From an uncultured Candidatus Saccharibacteria bacterium (GTDB lineage: Bacteria > Patescibacteriota > Dojkabacteria > SC72): a DNA stretch of 64,000 nucleotides. The stretch is from positions 319,877 through 383,876 of the forward strand of contig CAZSUV010000001.1 in NCBI GenBank assembly GCA_964610125.1. Direction: 5' to 3'. The notes beneath the pieces were generated by a model. It had not been told where the DNA came from. It saw nothing but the letters and a program-made list of their open reading frames with translations, and did not search any database. Of this stretch, positions 3,140 through 44,408 are shown one piece after another. The position numbers and the translations under genes were made by a program. Each line of letters opens with the position of its first letter. Within the stretch, counting starts at the first letter, position 1.

Positions 3140-3216
3140 GCGAGAGTAGTTCAGTTGGCTAGAACGACACATTGCCAATGTGTAGGTCGCGGGTTCGAAC
3201 CCCGTCTCTCGCTCCA
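3140..3216 (+). tRNA. tRNA-Gly (anticodon GCC), CCA encoded
   Basis: Acceptor GCGAGAG/CTCTCGC, anticodon stem ACACA/TGTGT with loop TTGCCAA, T-loop TTCGAAC. Confidence 0.9.
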
Positions 3217-3224
3217 TATTCAAA

Positions 3225-3578
3225 ATGAAACAATTACCTATTAAACCTACAATAACGATTGAAGACCTTGATAAGGTGGATATTCGTGTTGGTACTATAG
3301 AGAAAGTTGAAGATATGCCTGAATCCAAAAAACTTGTTAGATTAACCGTAGATTTCGGAGAATTCAAAAGAAATATTCTTGTCGGAATGAAATTGGAGAG
3401 GGAAAACCCTAAAGAAATTGAGGGAAAACAAGCTCTATTTGTTGTAAACCTTGCCCCGAGAGAAATGCTTGGCGAAATTTCCGAAGGAATGATTTTTGAT
3501 ATTGGATACAGTAATGAAATTATTCCTGTACTATCTGAACCAGAAAAACCAGTTCCCAATGGATCTTGTGCTGGATAA
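3225..3578 (+). CDS. tRNA-binding domain protein (CsaA/Trbp111/EMAP-like OB fold)
   Basis: 117 aa. DIRVGTIEKVEDMPESKKLVRLTVDFGE...RNILVGMK resembles the tRNA-binding domain found at the MetRS C-terminus and in CsaA. It lies immediately downstream of two tRNAs. Confidence 0.65.
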   Translation: MKQLPIKPTITIEDLDKVDIRVGTIEKVEDMPESKKLVRLTVDFGEFKRNILVGMKLERENPKEIEGKQALFVVNLAPREMLGEISEGMIFDIGYSNEIIPVLSEPEKPVPNGSCAG

Positions 3579-25253: not shown

Positions 25254-26276
25254 ATGGTTAATGATCCCAACATTGAACACAGTCAAGAGAGTAAGTGGAT
25301 ATTGGATAAAATTGTTGAAGGAACGCGTATTAACACTGTTTTTATATATCCATTTAACGAGCTTAGGGACAAAGAAACTGCCACAGTAGAGCTTTTTGAA
25401 GCTTTAGCTAACATGAATGTTTGCGAACCAGATGAGGTTGTTGATTGGGATAACATGGCCATACTTCTTTCAAAAGATACTGAGTTTGGATTGAGACTCC
25501 TTTTATTAGATAGAAAACTTACAGAAAAAGATGCATCAGTATTTAGTTTGAATATGCAAAAAGGCCTTTTTTATATTGGTATGCAAGTAGATACTGAAGG
25601 AAACATATTTTCTATTGTCTCTAATAATATCGATCCTGAATTTCGTTTAGCAGAAGTAAATATGATTGCGGGGCACCACATGTTGAATAATGCACTAATG
25701 GGAATAATTCTAAGAAATTCATACTTTGATCATACTGTTGATGGATATCCTTTTTTGAAGAAAGGAAAACCAGACTTAGAATACGATTTTGAGAATGTGG
25801 AAGGTGATGAAGAAGGGCATATCGTGAATAAAGATGGAAAGAAAAAACTTAAAAAAGAAATATTAAACGAAATAAAGGAATTGTTGAAGGGAAAGAGTTT
25901 AATACAGACTAACTTAACAAAAAAAGGATACGAAAGTTTTGATCTAAGTGAATCTTTTTTACGTGATTCTTTAGAAAGGTTAGGTTTCCCAAAAGAAAGA
26001 TTAGATTCTTTAAAGGCAAGGATATATGCCTATCATAGTGAAAAAGGAGAATTTGGGTTATTTCTTGTAGAGAAACAATTTAAAGATTCTGAGGTTATTG
26101 GCTCAAAAGAAATGCATTGTGGAATTGGGATTTCTGCCAAAGGGAAATTGAACTTTTATGTCTCAACAGATTATGGAGTTCAGGAGGAAATGGTGTCTGA
26201 GAAGGATGCAGGGTTGCGCTATTATGAATTTATCAATAGGTTGCTTTTCTGTGTTAGGTGTCTAAATAGTAAGTAG
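25254..26276 (+). CDS. hypothetical protein
   Basis: The long ORF (track 25173..26276) overlaps the rnhB 3' end, so I take Met at 25254. No recognisable motifs. Confidence 0.3.
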   Translation: MVNDPNIEHSQESKWILDKIVEGTRINTVFIYPFNELRDKETATVELFEALANMNVCEPDEVVDWDNMAILLSKDTEFGLRLLLLDRKLTEKDASVFSLNMQKGLFYIGMQVDTEGNIFSIVSNNIDPEFRLAEVNMIAGHHMLNNALMGIILRNSYFDHTVDGYPFLKKGKPDLEYDFENVEGDEEGHIVNKDGKKKLKKEILNEIKELLKGKSLIQTNLTKKGYESFDLSESFLRDSLERLGFPKERLDSLKARIYAYHSEKGEFGLFLVEKQFKDSEVIGSKEMHCGIGISAKGKLNFYVSTDYGVQEEMVSEKDAGLRYYEFINRLLFCVRCLNSK

Positions 26277-26336: not shown

Positions 26337-26410
26337 GGGCCGCTAGCTCATCCGGTTAGAGCAACTGCCTTTTAAGCAGTAGGTGCTGGGTCCGAGTCCC
26401 AGGCGGCTCA
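26337..26410 (+). tRNA. tRNA-Lys (anticodon TTT). Its 3' end is the integration site (attL) of an integrative element.
   Basis: GGGCCGCTAGCTCATCCGGTTAGAGC-ACTGC-CTTTTAA-GCAGT-AGGTG-CTGGG-TCCGAGT-CCCAG-GCGGCTC-A. The T-loop is TCC, not TTC. No CCA encoded. Confidence 0.85.
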
Positions 26411-27876
26411 CTTCCTGAAACATTTCCTATGGTGATATAGTCTTTAACTTCTTCTAGTACGGATTCTTGAGGTGTTGCAAATTTCTCTCCGTCAAACTGT
26501 AAACCTTCTGAAAATAGGAATTTTTGCAACTCGTTTTGAGATACAACATCCAATTCTGGCCATACAGAACACATATTCTTGAGAAAGTAGGTTGAATATT
26601 CAAGTAATTCATCGTTTTGTTCCTCAATAGGGGAATATTGTGCTATCTCAAATCCGATCTGCGCATACTCATCTTCAAGCTTATCAAGTTGTTCTTTTGC
26701 TATTCGTGGCGGAAGTATTCCATCTATGTTTTGCTGTGATATGGCGCTTTCCTGATTTGTAATTTGCTTTTGCCTTTCTTGCAGTATTTTTAAGTCTGTT
26801 TGATGGGCTTGTTCTTTCTCTTTCCAGTTTAGTTCTATTGCCTTTTTTGTTAGCTCTACGAGGCCCTCAGATAGGCTTACAGACGTAAGATATTCTTCAA
26901 AGGCTTCATGGACCTCTTTCCTTTTCAAGTTAACATTTTTACAAAAAGTACATTTGTAATATGGGTATTTATGTCTAGTCCAGTTTGCCGTCATTTTTCG
27001 GTTACAATGAGGGCACAAGATAGTACCTCTTAAAGGAAAATCTGGGTGTATTTTTCTATATACAGGGGGATTATGATTCTTACCATCGAGAATATCTTGT
27101 ACTAGGTCAAAGATTTTTGGTTCTATAATTGCGGGGAATGATCCTCTGATATATAAATCCATGTTTGGGATATTAATAAATCCTTTGTATATTGGTCTTC
27201 TAACTAATCGATGGAAACTAGAACGACCATACATTTTGTTATTATTATCCTTCAGTCCTATTTTATATGAATAAATTCGAGCATCTTCAATCGTATGCCC
27301 TCCTTCCGAAAGGTACTGAAAAATCTTCTTAATAATTTGTGCTTCTGTTTCATTCTGAATTAAGTTTGCCTTTCCTCTTCCTCCTGTTTGTATATATCCG
27401 TATGGAGCTGCATATACCCATCGTCCTTGTTTTAATGCTTCCATTGTCCCATTTCTTGCTCTCTCTCCTCTGATTTCATTATCCATCTGAGCAGAGGCTG
27501 CCATCATGGTCTCGAAGAAGCGTCCAGCTGGACTATCTTCAAGATTCTCCGTTAAGGAATGTATGCGAACATTATACCTTGCTAATAAAACTTTGAGACT
27601 TCCATAATCAAGTTGCTGTCTGGAGAGTCGATCTATTTTGTAAATTACGAGTGTATCAACAAGATTCTTATTTTTGCTAACAAAATCTAGTAGTTCTTTA
27701 AGTTTAGTTCGATTAATAGTTTTTGCACTCTCTCCATGTTCAATAAATTTCTTAACTATACATAGATCATTCTTTGAGGCAAATTCCTCGCACATTTTTT
27801 CTTGTGTTATCAAACTCAAGCCATTTTCTGCTTGCTCTTTAGTTGAAACACGGCAATAAATTATAATGTTCTTCAT
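26356..27876 (-). CDS. large serine recombinase (resolvase/invertase catalytic domain + recombinase domain + zinc ribbon)
   Basis: N-terminal IIYCRVSTKEQ (catalytic Ser). The recombinase domain includes a C-terminal CPHCNRKMTAN...YYKCTFC zinc ribbon. 506 aa. The 3' end reads into the tRNA-Lys/att region. Confidence 0.85.
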   Translation of the reverse strand: MKNIIIYCRVSTKEQAENGLSLITQEKMCEEFASKNDLCIVKKFIEHGESAKTINRTKLKELLDFVSKNKNLVDTLVIYKIDRLSRQQLDYGSLKVLLARYNVRIHSLTENLEDSPAGRFFETMMAASAQMDNEIRGERARNGTMEALKQGRWVYAAPYGYIQTGGRGKANLIQNETEAQIIKKIFQYLSEGGHTIEDARIYSYKIGLKDNNNKMYGRSSFHRLVRRPIYKGFINIPNMDLYIRGSFPAIIEPKIFDLVQDILDGKNHNPPVYRKIHPDFPLRGTILCPHCNRKMTANWTRHKYPYYKCTFCKNVNLKRKEVHEAFEEYLTSVSLSEGLVELTKKAIELNWKEKEQAHQTDLKILQERQKQITNQESAISQQNIDGILPPRIAKEQLDKLEDEYAQIGFEIAQYSPIEEQNDELLEYSTYFLKNMCSVWPELDVVSQNELQKFLFSEGLQFDGEKFATPQESVLEEVKDYITIGNVSGSEPPGTRTQHLLLKRQLL

Positions 27877-28049
27877 TTTTTCTTCCCCAAATTTTTAGAT
27901 CTTAAATATGATTCTATAACAATATTTGAGAGTCTTTCTACATTAGGAATAAGAAAAGGAATATCCTCCTCTGGAATCTTTAAGGATTTGGCTATAGCGA
28001 CTAACTTTTTATACTTTGCATCAAATGCAGGATCGAAACTAATAGGCAT
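27873..28049 (-). CDS. 58-aa ORF translationally coupled to the recombinase (ATGA overlap). Putative recombination directionality factor/excisionase-like protein.
   Basis: MPISFDPAFDAKYKKLVAIAKSLKIPEEDIPFLIPNVERLSNIVIESYLRSKNLGKKK. Its stop overlaps the recombinase ATG. The position relative to the recombinase is typical for Xis/RDF genes. Confidence 0.35.
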   Translation of the reverse strand: MPISFDPAFDAKYKKLVAIAKSLKIPEEDIPFLIPNVERLSNIVIESYLRSKNLGKKK

Positions 28050-28267
28050 CTAAACAAGCGTACTTATTTATTTTTCGTGCCTAACCTTGGTTAGACACAA
28101 GATGATGCATAAATCAGTTTTCTCCTTACATAAAAAGTTAGTTACCCGTCTCAGATGAGACATTTGTATCTTACAAAATTGCTTAAATGAAGTCAAAAGT
28201 GGAGAAATAATATTTTAATAGCAACATTTTTTTTGATCTTCCTGATGTGTATAAATGTTTAGAGTTT

Positions 28268-28511
28268 TGCTATAATTTATTTGACCTAAACCATATGAAT
28301 TTATGTGGCATGGTTACTAAAGATATTAGCTAATAACTAATATCTACAATCCAACACAATGGCAGAGGCGGGCTTCCGTTTCACTATCATTGTGTTGGTT
28401 ACAGACCGAAAGGTTTGTAGATACCCCGAAAGAGGTATCGGTGAGCGGGAGTCCACTTTCGCAAAGGTTGGCTCTTACTCGTAACCAACCTAAGTTATTA
28501 AAAAAAAGGCT
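28268..28511 (+). ncRNA. candidate structured 5' leader/ncRNA (riboswitch-like) upstream of the Zn-ribbon membrane protein gene
   Basis: Extended -10 TGCTATAAT at 28268-28276. Palindrome AGATATTAG..CTAATATCT (28321-28345). 11-bp perfect stem CCAACACAATG/CATTGTGTTGG (28349-28359/28389-28399). Two GAAA tetraloop hairpins (ACAGACC-GAAA-GGTTTGT; ATACCCC-GAAA-GAGGTAT). A CGCAAAG motif, then stem GGTTGG..CCAACC just before the RBS. Confidence 0.35.
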
Positions 28512-29693
28512 ATGGAGACACAATGTCCTAGCTGTAATAAGAGTGTAGACGTTTATGGTCCAGGAAGGCATAAATGCTCATGGTGTGGTGATTCTTTTAC
28601 TATTAGTGAGAAAAAATTCTCAACAATGAAAGAATCTTTTCGATCTGTCCATGCGACTAATTCTCCTTCTTTAATTTCTTCAGTTGCTGTGGTATTTCTT
28701 TGGATATTATCAGTACTTGGTTTCTTACTAGGCCTAGTATTCTTAGCGGGGAATGCTCTTTCAGGTGCTTTTGCCCTATGTTCTGCATTTATTATTCTCC
28801 CTCCCATCGCCAAATTACTTATCAAATTATTCCATCTCAGATTAATGTATGTTTTTATTGCATCCATTGCTTTGTTTGTAGCAGGCGCAATTATTCTAAG
28901 ATTTCCCCCAGTGAAATATTTTAACTCAGCCCAATCAAATAGTACTGAAACGCAGAGAATCATCCCTGGAAAAACAGAAATAACTACTGATGACCCAAGA
29001 CAAATCCTTTCATATGATTGTGTTAATGTTACAGCAATAAAAATAGGTGAAAAGGATATAGCACCTGCGAGTATTGAGCAAATCTGTAGTGGTAAATATC
29101 ACTTAAATTTACAAAGTGGGCTAAACTCTTACCATATAGAGATAACTACAAAGTCTGGGGTATTAACAGAAGATTTATCTGTTACTTTTGATGAGGTGAC
29201 ATACAATGCCAAACTGAAGGCAATTGCAGATGCAAAGGCACAAGCAGAGGCAGATGCAAAGGCTGCGGAAGAAGCTAAACTACAAGGATATGCAACAAGT
29301 TATTGTGCTAATAGAAAAACCGCAACGAGAAAATATGGGACATTTACGATATCGGATAAAGGTATTTCTGCTGAATTTTCAAAAGGCAAACAAGGACGAT
29401 ATCTAAAAATTGCTGACTGTAGAGCTATCATCGACACAATGATAGCTACAATGAAGAAAAGGGAAGGCTCTGTGAAGTCAGATATTCTTGATTTGATAAT
29501 AGCTGGAGAATACAAAATGGGGATGTATGAATATTATTTCTTTGCATCCGCGGGGAATCCTGATGATATAAATAACTCACAATATGGATCAAATGAGCAT
29601 GATCAAGTGATATATTACAAAGATTCTTATGGAATTAGTGCAAATTACTATTATTTTGATAATGGTGTTTTAACATCAACACAGGATTTCTAG
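28512..29693 (+). CDS. zinc-ribbon membrane protein with large extracytoplasmic domain (element cargo)
   Basis: N-terminal CPSCNKS...HKCSWCG zinc ribbon and three TM helices. The ~250-aa outer domain has an AKAQAEADAKAAEEAK linker and a Tyr/Asn-rich C-terminus. Confidence 0.5.
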   Translation: METQCPSCNKSVDVYGPGRHKCSWCGDSFTISEKKFSTMKESFRSVHATNSPSLISSVAVVFLWILSVLGFLLGLVFLAGNALSGAFALCSAFIILPPIAKLLIKLFHLRLMYVFIASIALFVAGAIILRFPPVKYFNSAQSNSTETQRIIPGKTEITTDDPRQILSYDCVNVTAIKIGEKDIAPASIEQICSGKYHLNLQSGLNSYHIEITTKSGVLTEDLSVTFDEVTYNAKLKAIADAKAQAEADAKAAEEAKLQGYATSYCANRKTATRKYGTFTISDKGISAEFSKGKQGRYLKIADCRAIIDTMIATMKKREGSVKSDILDLIIAGEYKMGMYEYYFFASAGNPDDINNSQYGSNEHDQVIYYKDSYGISANYYYFDNGVLTSTQDF

Positions 29694-29696
29694 TGC

Positions 29697-29714
29697 TGCA
29701 ACAACGTTGTTGCA
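29697..29714. repeat. 18-bp perfect palindrome TGCAACAACGTTGTTGCA immediately after the stop of the membrane protein gene
   Basis: Self-complementary by inspection. Possible terminator stem or operator. Confidence 0.6.
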
Positions 29715-29732
29715 AAGGCGTTTCGAATTTTT

Positions 29733-29841
29733 CGGTGCGTATAAAAAAGGGGATTTTTGAATAGCTTTTGACACTTTTCCGATGCGTATAAAAAGGGGAT
29801 TTGAGATAAGTTTTTACTTTTTCAGTGCATATAAAAAAGGA
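29733..29841. repeat. three direct repeats (~24 bp, period ~45 bp): CGGTGCGTATAAAAAAGGGGATTT / CCGATGCGTATAAAAAGGGGATTT / CAGTGCATATAAAAAAGGAACGGA, each preceded by a T-run
   Basis: Copies at 29733-29756, 29779-29802 and 29823-29841. Each contains a TATAAAA -10-like core. A TTGACA sits in spacer 1 at 29769-29774. Confidence 0.65.
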
Positions 29842-29949
29842 ACGGAATTTGGTTATTCAATATTTTCCCCCTAATCTTATGTGAGGCCTCTTTCGTTTGT
29901 TTAACAATTTGTACTTGTAAATTACATTTATTATCAATATAATCAAAGA

Positions 29950-30264
29950 ATGGAACCCAATAACGATCAAATCCAGGAAATACAACTTGCTGGGAAGAAG
30001 TTAGACTCCAATACCCAGGACATTTCAATAATAGAAGAATATGGAAAGAATCTTTTCTTAGAAAATGAAAAGTTTATTAAAGAAAAAGTTCCAGATAATT
30101 GGTTCGCAATTATAGACCCATTTAATGCTTTGCTTATTGCTTCGCCAGATACTGTAACGCTATATCAATATTCTCAGAAAAGAACATCTAATATGCTCTT
30201 TTACTTCGTTGGTCTGATAAAAAACAGTTTTAAGAATATGTACATATATGCAAGAAGAGATTAA
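29950..30264 (+). CDS. hypothetical protein (104 aa), overlapping the downstream protease gene by 17 nt
   Basis: ORF with start 100 nt downstream of the repeat trio. No recognisable motifs. Confidence 0.3.
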   Translation: MEPNNDQIQEIQLAGKKLDSNTQDISIIEEYGKNLFLENEKFIKEKVPDNWFAIIDPFNALLIASPDTVTLYQYSQKRTSNMLFYFVGLIKNSFKNMYIYARRD

Positions 30265-30727
30265 GCAACAAAGATTAGAATTCCCTGTCGCAGATAACTT
30301 TTCACCAGAAATTACAATTGAGGTTATTGGACTTTCAGGGGAGTCTAGGAAAGTTGTTGCTATAGTCGATACTGGATTCACAGGTTTTTTACAAATACCT
30401 TTGGCAATAGGAATTTCATGCAATTTAGCCCTTTGGAGTATTAGTACTTCCATCCTAGCAGATGGGAGCAGGGTTCGTAACCTTCAATGTTTTGGGAAAA
30501 TTCGTTTTGGAAACAAAGAACTAGCTAATATACTGACATTATCTGATACTGGAAACGACTGCTTATTAGGGGTGCAATTCCTCCAAGAGTTAAAGGGAGA
30601 ATTCATCTTATCACATGCCGAAAAGAAAGCGATTTTTTGTTTCCCAGAAGTTGAACAATTAAAAGATGGTCCTAAAGATAAAACGGCTGAAAGTGGTACG
30701 AAATCAAAGAAAGAAAAGAAAAAATAA
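30248..30727 (+). CDS. retropepsin-like (clan AA) aspartyl protease
   Basis: VAIVDTGFTGFLQIPL contains the D-T-G-(F/A) catalytic triad in a hydrophobic context. The later LLGVQFL is flap/dimerisation-like. Lys-rich C-terminal tail. 159 aa. Confidence 0.6.
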   Translation: MQEEIKQQRLEFPVADNFSPEITIEVIGLSGESRKVVAIVDTGFTGFLQIPLAIGISCNLALWSISTSILADGSRVRNLQCFGKIRFGNKELANILTLSDTGNDCLLGVQFLQELKGEFILSHAEKKAIFCFPEVEQLKDGPKDKTAESGTKSKKEKKK

Positions 30728-30749
30728 TTGAATCCCCTTTTGTGAAGAT

Positions 30750-31592
30750 TTACAGTGCTAATATGCTAGAAGGTTTTCCGAGGCAGCATTTTTTATACTT
30801 TAATCCACTTCCGCACGGGCAAGGGGAATTACGTCCGATTTTAGTTTTATTTCTAACAGTTGTTTGTATTGGTTCAACGCTTAAACACATATCGGCTATT
30901 TGAAAACCACTTGAATTTTTATATATATTGGCAGTAGGGCATACATATCCAGGCTCTAAAGTCTTTCTAACCTCATGGGCAATTTGCCTAATAGAACCTG
31001 CGATTACATCTACAAAATATGCTTTTTCTGTAGTATTGTTTCCAAACATTAATCCAAGTGAATTGAAATATTTCATATTTAGATATACCTCGTCAGTTAA
31101 CTCAGTATCTATATGAGCTCCACCATCTTGGTCTGCCACATTTAAGACTAAGTCTTTTCTTGTTAAGCCTTGTCCACTACTGTCGTTTATTACAACTGCA
31201 TTCCACCAGTCATTAAAATTAGCTTTCTTTATACCATCATGCGAAGGATCTTCATCTAAGAGAGGAATAGGATGCTTGAAACTTGGATCAATTATAGTGA
31301 GTCCATAGTGTGACATGGGAATTGAAATAGGATTCTTAACAATGTATGTGTCTAAAAAGTCCGTTGTTTCTAAAAGATTCATGCTTCCAAGAAGAGATTT
31401 GCTATTCCTAGTATCATGTAGCAAAAGCCTTAGCCTTGCTGCCATATTTTTAGCCTCTGCATAGGAACCCTCATCATAGCTTTTAATTGAGTTGTCTAGA
31501 AGCTCGAGTTGCTCCTTCAGATCATTTTGTAAATTTTCTGTAGTCTTTATATAGGTCATATTTGAAGTATAGGATATTTTTTTACATAACAA
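30750..31592 (-). CDS. SEC-C-motif (CPCGSG..KYKKCC) zinc-binding protein of unknown function
   Basis: C-terminal [15 protein letters not shown] is a textbook SecA-C-terminal-type SEC-C motif. The remaining ~250 aa have no recognised domain. The true start may be Met at 31559. Confidence 0.5.
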
Positions 31593-31790
31593 AAGATATG
31601 GGGCTAGGGAAGCAATATTCTCTCTAAAGATACTAGAGCGTAAGTAAGCTTATAGGGGCGTTGTTTTTGAAACTTCTCTAGCAGACAGAAGTATAATATG
31701 CTAATGCTGAAGTATACAATCGCAAAGTTATATATGAATCAAGCAGATGATCTAAATTTTAGAAGAAATGCCTATGAATAATAAATAAAA

Positions 31791-31830
31791 AAGACCTCAA
31801 ATGTGTAGTTTATGAGGTCTTTTTCTTAGG
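31791..31830. terminator. bidirectional intrinsic-terminator-like hairpin (AAAAAAGACCTCA..TGAGGTCTTTTTCTT)
   Basis: 9-bp stem AGACCTCAT/ATGAGGTCT flanked by an A-run and a T-run, in the 240-nt gap between divergent genes. Confidence 0.5.
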
Positions 31831-31904
31831 ACATGTATTTCGATAAACACATTGTACTAATGTTTTCCAATAACTTCAAGATTTTAATTTTAAGGGTTAC
31901 TACA

Positions 31905-32192
31905 ATGTCTGAATATAATATTTATGCGACTAGCAGAGTTTCAAGTACTCCAATCTATTCGGAGGAAGAAATATCTGGTTATTACTTTTGGTTAAACGGG
32001 GTCCAAAGGTATCTTTCTAAGGCGGATATGAGGAATGCGTATCGAGTTGGAGATCAATATTTTACCTATCGCTCTAATTCTCAGCCAAGAACGGCGTGTT
32101 CTTGGGAGATAAGCACTCGTAGAGAATGGTATCTAAAGAGTTATCCTAACAATACAAGTGCAGATAACCTTTTATCTTTGCCAATAATATAG
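31905..32192 (+). CDS. hypothetical protein (96 aa from Met 31905), last gene inside the element
   Basis: ORF only. Start chosen at the first Met after the terminator hairpin. Confidence 0.3.
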   Translation: MSEYNIYATSRVSSTPIYSEEEISGYYFWLNGVQRYLSKADMRNAYRVGDQYFTYRSNSQPRTACSWEISTRREWYLKSYPNNTSADNLLSLPII

Positions 32193-32399
32193 GTGGTAAG
32201 GGGCATTGAAATATATGCCCCTCCTATACAGTACTATTCCCATGCTGTATTTATACTCAGGCTTTCAGGTGTAATATTCAATCGCTTTAATAAAGATCCT
32301 AGGCTTAACAACCTTTCTGTAATTTGTTGCAAAACTTTTCCAGGCGGCTCACTTTCTCTCCATAGACTTATCCACATTCTTAACATATAATGATGATAT

Positions 32400-44218: not shown

Positions 44219-44408
44219 GAATTAAAAAGACATTTAATTTATGTTAAGAAGTTTTACTTTGAAAATAGTCGCCGCAAAACCTCTCTGTACAGATCGGTTT
44301 CGCCATTAGCTCCTCTTGATTCATATAGCGACCAAAACGAAATCAAGTATCAATGCCCCTGTCCCATAATAATATATCTTTTGAAATATGAAAGTCAATA
44401 TCTTTTCA

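Follow-up and report, generated by a model that had tools for sequence, protein, structure and literature searches.

Results

A recombinase-bearing insertion at a tRNA-Lys gene

We analysed a 64,000-nt stretch of contig CAZSUV010000001.1 (assembly GCA_964610125.1, positions 319,877–383,876), which comes from the Dojkabacteria lineage SC72 and is called the window throughout. Between positions 26399 and 32354 the window carries what is very probably a 5.9-kb site-specific integrative element in a genome of the Dojkabacteria (candidate division WS6, part of the candidate phyla radiation, CPR). A first-pass annotation of this DNA had proposed an exact 15-nt repeat at tRNA-Lys and at 32340–32354, and an integrative element in tRNA-Lys with a large serine recombinase (LSR); both proposals were confirmed by the analyses described here. 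The features that define the insertion are the following:

26337–26411, + strand: tRNA-Lys(UUU) gene, the integration target, with the chromosomal attachment site attB at its 3′ end (ARAGORN and Rfam)
26356–27876, − strand: LSR, integrated-form open reading frame (ORF) of 506 aa (Pfam, PHROGs)
26399–26413, + strand: attL core, a 15-bp direct repeat made of the final 13 nt of the tRNA gene and 2 nt beyond it
27873–28049, − strand: 58-aa ORF, translationally coupled to the recombinase gene via an ATGA overlap
32237–32339, − strand: last 34 codons of the recombinase gene (KVLQQITERLLSLGSLLKRLNITPESLSINTAWE), separated from the rest of it but still in the reading frame of the core
32340–32354, + strand: attR core, the second copy of CCAGGCGGCTCACTT

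The 15-mer CCAGGCGGCTCACTT is found exactly twice, with a spacing of 5,941 bp between the copies. Its chance expectation is 0.02 matches when up to two mismatches are allowed, and two copies were obtained in 0 of 100 shuffled sequences. The tRNA-Lys(UUU) gene remains intact despite the insertion, and comparison of the cores among sister elements would place the crossover within its last four nucleotides, CTCA (26408–26411). The ORF listing gives seven ORFs between the element ends, the same set as described in the first-pass annotation, and both the 58-aa coupled ORF and the SEC-C motif of a cargo protein (3.7e-9) were recovered. The recombinase contains the domains Resolvase (PF00239, 7.6e-32), Recombinase (PF07508, 3.7e-10) and Zn_ribbon_recom (PF13408, 1.6e-7) in Pfam and matches the integrase family phrog_95 (3.6e-79). 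An AlphaFold2 model of a sister protein (P0003) shows a long coiled coil at residues 338–413.

Empty and decayed sites in related genomes

A 29-nt probe from the 3′ half of the tRNA-Lys gene led to nine GTDB genomes with titles naming candidate division WS6, Dojkabacteria, Saccharibacteria, Patescibacteria or an uncultured bacterium. The site is empty in two close relatives. In one of them (L013), the flanking RNase HII and CAP-domain proteins are each ~95% identical to those of the window; in the other (L011), the CAP protein is 93% identical. The CAP gene begins within ~100 bp after tRNA-Lys in both, and the sequence following the tRNA (TTTTTCACTCTCTAGACTTATCCACATCC) equals the window sequence from 32355 onward (TCTCTCCATAGACTTATCCACATTC), as the first-pass annotation had predicted for an empty site. 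In two more distant genomes (L012 and L014) the site is likewise empty. Remnants occupy it in two others: L009 retains 32 codons of a recombinase 3′ end, and L015 retains 91 recombinase codons together with a 32%-identical homologue of the 393-aa cargo protein described below. The tRNA-Lys site has thus been hit repeatedly, and decayed copies are found beside intact ones.

Between RNase HII and tRNA-Lys the window encodes a 340-aa protein (25254–26276) that has no family match. It gave no tblastn match in the empty-site genome L013 and has a 46%-identical copy in L009. The upstream side of tRNA-Lys is thus also variable among relatives.

Sister elements as attP junction, closed circles and integrated copies

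The recombinase belongs to a tight clade of ~20 relatives with 57–81% identity. Two sisters (L086 and L087) are integrated at the same RNase HII/tRNA-Lys locus, each with its own att repeats and other cargo. L086 measures 7.5 kb and carries 1002-aa, OB-fold, 429-aa and 144-aa proteins, and L087 measures 6.6 kb and carries a MutH-like nuclease with a C5 methylase, an SDH protease and a TerS-like protein. A further locus, L092, lies at the same RNase HII/tRNA-Lys position, with an NYN RNase and small proteins as cargo. In a 77%-identical sister element on a JGI contig (L077) we found the joined junction AACCTTTCTGTAATTTGTTGCAAAATAATT-CCAGGCGGCTCACTT-CCTGAAACATTTCC, which combines the left arm of the window attR, the core and the right arm of the window attL and is therefore the attP of that element.

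Free forms of the family were observed as circles. Seven Logan contigs from seven samples (L079–L085, SRR25528439-75), each 3,729 bp long and with ends that overlap by 30 bp, are rotations of a single identical 3,699-bp circle, which encodes a recombinase with the attP-form tail, a 98-aa protein and two transmembrane (TM)/Cys-rich membrane proteins and has no Rep gene. A second circle of 6,715 bp (L078, Logan ERR10503158) contains two attP-like copies of core plus tail in direct orientation, which bracket a NucS_C/MrcB_N nuclease, a MazG-like protein, a 77-aa ORF and an HNH cassette; this layout suggests that cargo is gained by accretion at att sites. TerS-like genes (phrog_4102) occur in L087 (9350–9733, 1.7e-19) and in L078 (2203–2529, 7.4e-16), in each case directly upstream of the small ORF and the integrase gene (int), and neither sister has a large terminase gene.

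Family elements thus range from 3.7 to 7.5 kb around a backbone of a large serine recombinase and a small coupled ORF, with nothing else conserved, and this common backbone places the window element in a family of mini integrative elements. The first-pass annotation had viewed its cargo as a self-contained module whose genes should co-occur elsewhere. This view did not hold: six sister elements carry entirely different cargo, and only one gene pair, a 104-aa protein with a protease, recurs. Restriction-modification systems, nucleases and membrane proteins are interchangeable across the family, and the cargo as a set is a swappable mosaic and not one conserved system. A scan of IMG/VR yielded no close relatives of the recombinase. 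One clade member (P0013, 565 aa, 47 contigs) has a third type of C-terminal tail, which is neither the tRNA-Lys antisense nor the helix tail, and its element may be integrated at a different site.

The recombinase gene crosses its own attachment site

In the integrated copy the att core encodes recombinase residues 488–492 (AGT GAG CCG CCT GG = SEPPG). The residues that follow (493–506, TRTQHLLLKRQLL, then stop) are the antisense reading of tRNA-Lys, and most clade members end likewise. By contrast, the three proteins encoded on attP or circle contigs run on past the core into tails that start IILQQITERLLGLGSLLKRLSITPTNL, KVLQLIIEKLLSLGSLLKRLNITHKDL and TVLQQFIKSLLLLGSILKRLNKVSNYL, and the 34 codons beside attR in the window encode the same tail. 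Rejoined on an excised circle, the gene would give a 526-aa protein that ends in a conserved amphipathic helix.

All six elements examined have an uninterrupted, in-frame tail past the core. The tail motif LLSLGSLLKRL persists despite synonymous changes (Ser AGC/TCC/TCA, Leu TTG/CTC/CTT/CTA, Gly GGA/GGC/GGT), and, counted by codon position, 10/8/16 of 22 columns are variable. The codon-position pattern and the synonymous changes together point to selection on the tail peptide and not on a DNA binding site only. Among the 120 best LSR homologues (33–81% identical), 76 end in antisense-tRNA peptides, for example ..RGIEPLLPG or ..TGLEPATSSVQMRRSTR, and most of the remainder have a terminal amphipathic helix of the form FW(D/N)(E/Q)I..EL..L..IL. 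In metagenomic loci, LSR 3′ ends overlap genes for tRNA-Glu, -Gly, -Leu, -Asn and -Met. As judged from these comparisons, an attP inside the int gene, with a C-terminus that changes on integration, is the family-wide architecture. We found no report of an attP within a serine integrase coding region in the literature searched.

Gene-calling pipelines gave a 50-aa gene at 32234–32386 (− strand), which runs from host DNA through attR into the recombinase tail. This ORF is probably spurious, but through it the tail peptide could be expressed alone.

The small coupled ORF

The 58-aa ORF is conserved in five of the six sister elements compared and is missing from the 3.7-kb circle. Its product shares the motif IP.L...KLSNIIIDSYI with the other small coupled ORFs and has no family match in Pfam, NCBIfam, PADLOC or PHROGs. 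The 58-aa protein is a weak candidate for a directionality or regulatory factor.

LOOT RNA in the element and its genomic neighbourhood

The first of two non-coding regions in the element contains a LOOT RNA (Rfam RF03000; Weinberg et al. 2017, PMC5737381), which is transcribed in the opposite direction, away from the recombinase operon:

28268–28276, + strand: extended −10 promoter TGCTATAAT, 7 nt upstream of LOOT
28283–28480, + strand: LOOT RNA (RF03000 match 28283–28439, with a structured extension to ~28480; Rfam)

The window LOOT scores 49.0 bits against a gathering score of 46.4 and covers the full model (positions 1–121), and the region folds with a z-score of −6.8 relative to shuffled sequences. 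In the 81%-identical sister L086, LOOT reaches 79.7 bits over the full model with the same promoter arrangement. Both RNAs share a conserved extension, TCGGTGAGCGGGNGNCCACTT, beyond the Rfam model, which in the window reaches ~25–40 nt past the 3′ end of the model; the window RNA also has an additional ~30-nt hairpin.

A pattern built on the invariant LOOT segments was found at more than 120 places in JGI metagenomes, 80 of which were fetched and combined with two IMG/VR loci to give 82 loci. An LSR-family hidden Markov model (HMM) matches 27 of the 82, and 18 of the 36 in which the sequence upstream of LOOT extends for 2 kb or more. In 20 of these 27 the window arrangement of an upstream, divergent LSR is repeated (binomial p = 1e-7), and all 20 LSR-positive loci that were re-tested have LOOT above the gathering score (54–105 bits). 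In a control set of 60 viral loci (886 kb in total), the LSR model matched once. Other recurrent neighbours of LOOT are large terminase genes (12 loci), TerS-like helix-turn-helix (HTH) proteins (11), N6/N4 methylases (13), DUF5659 proteins (9) and Zn-ribbon-TM-OB-fold proteins (6). Immediately after LOOT come genes of various families, whose products usually begin with a TM segment or signal peptide; an N-terminal TM segment is present at 26 or more of 63 loci. We considered LOOT as the leader of a single gene family and rejected it: a Zn-ribbon protein is downstream in only 2 of 63 loci.

This neighbour survey identifies LOOT as an RNA of CPR prophages and LSR elements, located on the lysogeny side between int and a membrane-protein ‘moron’ gene. 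Five other family members do not have LOOT, and LOOT is therefore not required for recombination. Searchable literature gave neither a function nor a genomic association for LOOT, and the literature searched contained no report of its carriage by an integrative element of this type. Four loci (L106, L121, L173 and L168) show a second layout in place of the divergent one: a shorter LSR-like ORF, with LOOT 41–44 nt after it on that strand; in L168 the ORF as called overlaps LOOT.

Cargo genes and the second non-coding region

The remainder of the element consists of the following features:

28512–29693, + strand: Zn-ribbon/multi-TM/ectodomain protein of 393 aa, directly downstream of LOOT
29707–29841, + strand: three imperfect ~45-bp direct repeats with boxes GTGCRTATAAAAARGG at 29735, 29782 and 29825, upstream of the 104-aa gene
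29950–30727, + strand: two-gene cassette of a 104-aa protein and a 159-aa putative clan AA (DTG) aspartic protease, overlapping by 17 nt
30750–31592, − strand: SEC-C-motif protein of 269–280 aa (SEC-C motif 3.7e-9, Pfam)
31786–31826: hairpin GACCTCA...TGAGGTC flanked by an A-run and a T-run (read from the sequence)
31860–32192, + strand: 110-aa protein (96–119 aa depending on the start codon), with weak DUF3892/phrog_8224 similarity only

At its N-terminus the 393-aa protein bears a CxxC...CxxC motif, after which hydrophobic segments follow; it matched no family and no PDB sequence. By analogy, its placement, led by LOOT and divergent from int, would resemble that of phage superinfection-exclusion or conversion genes. 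The 45-bp repeats behind it are possible operator or iteron-like sites, and their boxes occur in no other fetched locus.

The 159-aa protein matches TIGR03698 (3.7e-11) with a score of 43.3, below the cut-off of 57.35, and the sequence DTGFTGF is invariant in eight protease homologues. The same pair with the same 17-nt overlap is present in L218 (3300–4080), in a Prim-Pol element, and in L220 (5445–6186), next to an IS1595 transposase and a diversity-generating retroelement (RVT_1 + bAvd); the upstream partners in these pairs are 36% identical to the 104-aa protein. The pair is a portable two-gene cassette, possibly of a toxin–antitoxin-like kind. The first-pass annotation had described the two proteins as fused in reading. 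A programmed frameshift was considered and rejected: the 17-nt overlap in the +1 frame is an ordinary operon overlap, conserved as such, and each gene has its own start.

The SEC-C protein belongs to a widespread family, and its N-terminal domain matches phrog_7805. Scanning IMG/VR with it returned nearly exclusively matches to the 20–30-aa motif, with one full-length match at 30% identity (L017). In PADLOC likewise only the 20–30-aa SEC-C motif was matched, by the PDC-S12 and E2 models, and when the 393-aa, 159-aa and SEC-C proteins and a SEC-C family profile were compared with PDB sequences, the SEC-C motif alone was matched. A role in defence or superinfection exclusion, as suggested in the first-pass annotation, is consistent with the genomic context, while its PADLOC matches reduce to the SEC-C motif. 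The accompanying statement that nothing maps to a described system has to be amended, because the first non-coding region is LOOT. PADLOC, Pfam and NCBIfam assign no system to the cargo.

The hairpin at 31786–31826 looks like a bidirectional terminator. It lies in the second non-coding region (31593–31832), where a sigma-70-like promoter candidate, TTGAAA...TATAAT, is located at ~31668–31697 (+ strand); a small + strand transcript of ~120 nt from this region is possible.

Outside the element, the window contains a match to the c-di-GMP-II-GAG riboswitch at 44283–44368 (− strand; RF03169, 40.8 bits against a gathering score of 40). At 3140–3251, ARAGORN called a tRNA-Gly(gcc) on the + strand overlapping a tRNA-Ser(tga) on the − strand; since Rfam backs Gly alone, tRNA-Ser is probably a false call.

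Discussion

A proposed integration-dependent exchange of the recombinase C-terminus

The first-pass annotation held that the element is neither a prophage nor an integrative and conjugative element (ICE), and our searches agree. Pfam, NCBIfam, PHROGs and PADLOC revealed no replication, virion or conjugation gene. Specifically, we found (i) no terminase, portal, capsid or tail gene, PHROGs matches being confined to the integrase and families of unknown function; (ii) no relaxase, coupling protein or type IV secretion gene, as expected of an ICE or an integrative and mobilizable element, among the seven ORFs in Pfam and NCBIfam; (iii) no replication initiator or partition gene in the window element or its sisters; and (iv) no TerS or capsid-redirection gene of the kind by which phage-inducible chromosomal islands hijack a helper, as searched with PHROGs in the window element.

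The junctions suggest the following cycle. On the circle, a complete recombinase gene would encode the 526-aa protein with its conserved amphipathic C-terminal helix, and this form would recombine attP with the last nucleotides of tRNA-Lys, whereby the tRNA is regenerated. Integration would split off the last 34 codons, so that the resident copy specifies 506 aa ending in 14 antisense-tRNA residues. Excision, possibly aided by the 58-aa protein, would restore the full recombinase gene. The cargo would most likely comprise lysogenic-conversion or defence-type ‘moron’ genes, and transfer between cells, which the element does not itself encode, would have a helper phage as its likeliest vehicle.

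As a tentative extension, we consider it possible that the attP within the gene acts as a sensor of integration state, by which a full-length, helix-bearing enzyme on the circle is exchanged for a helix-less, tRNA-tailed enzyme in the chromosome, the two isoforms differing in direction, activity or stability. LOOT would then be a functional component of the backbone, for example one that governs the two divergent promoters, of int and of the cargo, or lysogeny. If this is true, directionality is set in part by the state of the DNA itself.

Several observations weigh against the reading of the locus as an integrative element with the cycle set out above. The GC content of the element (~0.35) is the same as that of its flanks, which fits either long residence or a native mobilome. 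Look-ups for a free circle or an empty form of the exact window element gave integrated contigs only. In the AlphaFold model of the attP-form recombinase, the tail helix (493–513) has a predicted local distance difference test (pLDDT) score below 52 and is undocked, and the model thus gives no mechanism for the tail. No recombination directionality factor was identified in the element, and such a factor translationally coupled to int would be unusual.

Alternative explanations

Four other accounts of the locus have to be weighed against a mobile integrative element. That the 15-mer is a chance repeat in ordinary chromosome has a probability close to nil: its single argument is the unremarkable GC content, and it is refuted by the expectation of 0.02 copies and by empty sites and an attP junction that end exactly at the repeat. 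A phage satellite, with an LSR and LOOT module held in common with temperate CPR phages and with packaging and transfer by a helper, is a possible though rather doubtful account. It gains from the TerS-like genes of L087 and L078, which occur without large terminase or capsid genes; from the LOOT loci, so often accompanied by large terminase (12) and TerS-like (11) genes that LOOT and LSR belong to CPR prophages; and from the size of 3.7–7.5 kb without a Rep gene, which fits helper dependence. The window element itself, however, has no TerS-like, capsid-remodelling, primase or repressor gene in Pfam, NCBIfam or PHROGs, no helper phage was identified, and the phrog_4102 match is centred on the HTH domain and may mark a regulator and not a terminase. 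For the family as a whole, the TerS-like sisters and the backbone common with CPR prophages make helper-phage-mediated transfer, a satellite lifestyle, the most plausible route.

It is unlikely that the locus is the inert stump of a degraded prophage, a lysogeny module with morons that has lost its mobility. The layout of LSR, LOOT and downstream membrane protein does adjoin terminase genes in larger LOOT loci, the exact element was found in integrated copies only, and L009 and L015 carry truly decayed copies at this site; yet the window has two perfect att cores, its int ORF and detached tail are unbroken and show purifying selection, equally small sisters are seen as attP junction and circle, and virion genes are missing consistently across the family, in contrast to what random deletion end-points would leave. 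We regard as similarly improbable an integrative plasmid, whose circle would replicate through host functions with the 45-bp repeats or LOOT as origin or primer. The 3,699-bp sister, an isolated closed circle in seven samples, suggests that the free form predominates there, the repeats at 29707–29841 are iteron-like and LOOT is a promoter-driven structured RNA, but Rep, primase and partition genes are lacking throughout the family, the repeats, which are not diagnostic by themselves, occur in the window element only and LOOT is missing from the 3.7-kb circle. The reading that we prefer remains a site-specific integrative element.

Implications

Mobile elements of CPR bacteria (Patescibacteria) are poorly known. 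The family described here is precisely delimited and comparatively validated, consists of very small integrative elements and is the first well-bounded one in Dojkabacteria. It moves restriction-modification systems, nucleases and surface proteins between Dojkabacteria via a single tRNA-Lys hotspot. Serine integrases are widely used in genome engineering, and a recombinase gene that crosses attP possibly represents a new control of serine-integrase directionality or stability. The orphan LOOT RNA receives its first genomic context, in recombinase-bearing CPR prophages and mini-elements, which narrows the hypotheses on its function.

Comparison with known systems

The window recombinase has the same architecture as those of LSR elements and prophages (phiC31, Bxb1, A118/LI, TP901-1, SPbeta and the Ccr recombinases of SCCmec), with the catalytic Ser in YCRVSTKEQ, a recombinase domain and a zinc ribbon with an inserted coiled coil. 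It shares with them short att sites, and unidirectional integration with a separate excision factor would be expected. Unlike in those elements, attP lies inside the recombinase gene and the C-terminus is set by the integration state; integration takes place at the very 3′ end of a tRNA gene, and the element spans 5.9 kb without phage or conjugation genes.

Prochlorococcus tycheposons are likewise small tRNA-targeting elements with variable cargo in a streamlined genome; some are satellite-like, and a minority have large serine recombinases (10.1101/2020.12.28.424599). Most tycheposons use tyrosine recombinases and many have replication genes, whereas the window family has none and resides in a CPR host. 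Integrases of the SSV type in archaea contain attP inside the integrase gene, which is partitioned on integration (PMC8371274). Those are tyrosine recombinases that separate into two large inactive parts, whereas the window gene loses its last 34 codons and its ORF remains open into the tRNA.

Mycobacteriophages of clusters G, N and P carry attP within the repressor gene and thereby possess integration-dependent immunity (Broussard & Hatfull; PMC3694055). Both in this immunity system and in the window element, integration swaps the C-terminus of a regulatory protein and yields a lysogen-specific isoform. The two differ in what is divided and what is lost: the mycobacteriophages have a tyrosine integrase and divide the repressor gene, which thereby loses a degradation tag (PMC3694055), whereas the window element divides the gene of its own serine recombinase, which loses a conserved amphipathic helix.

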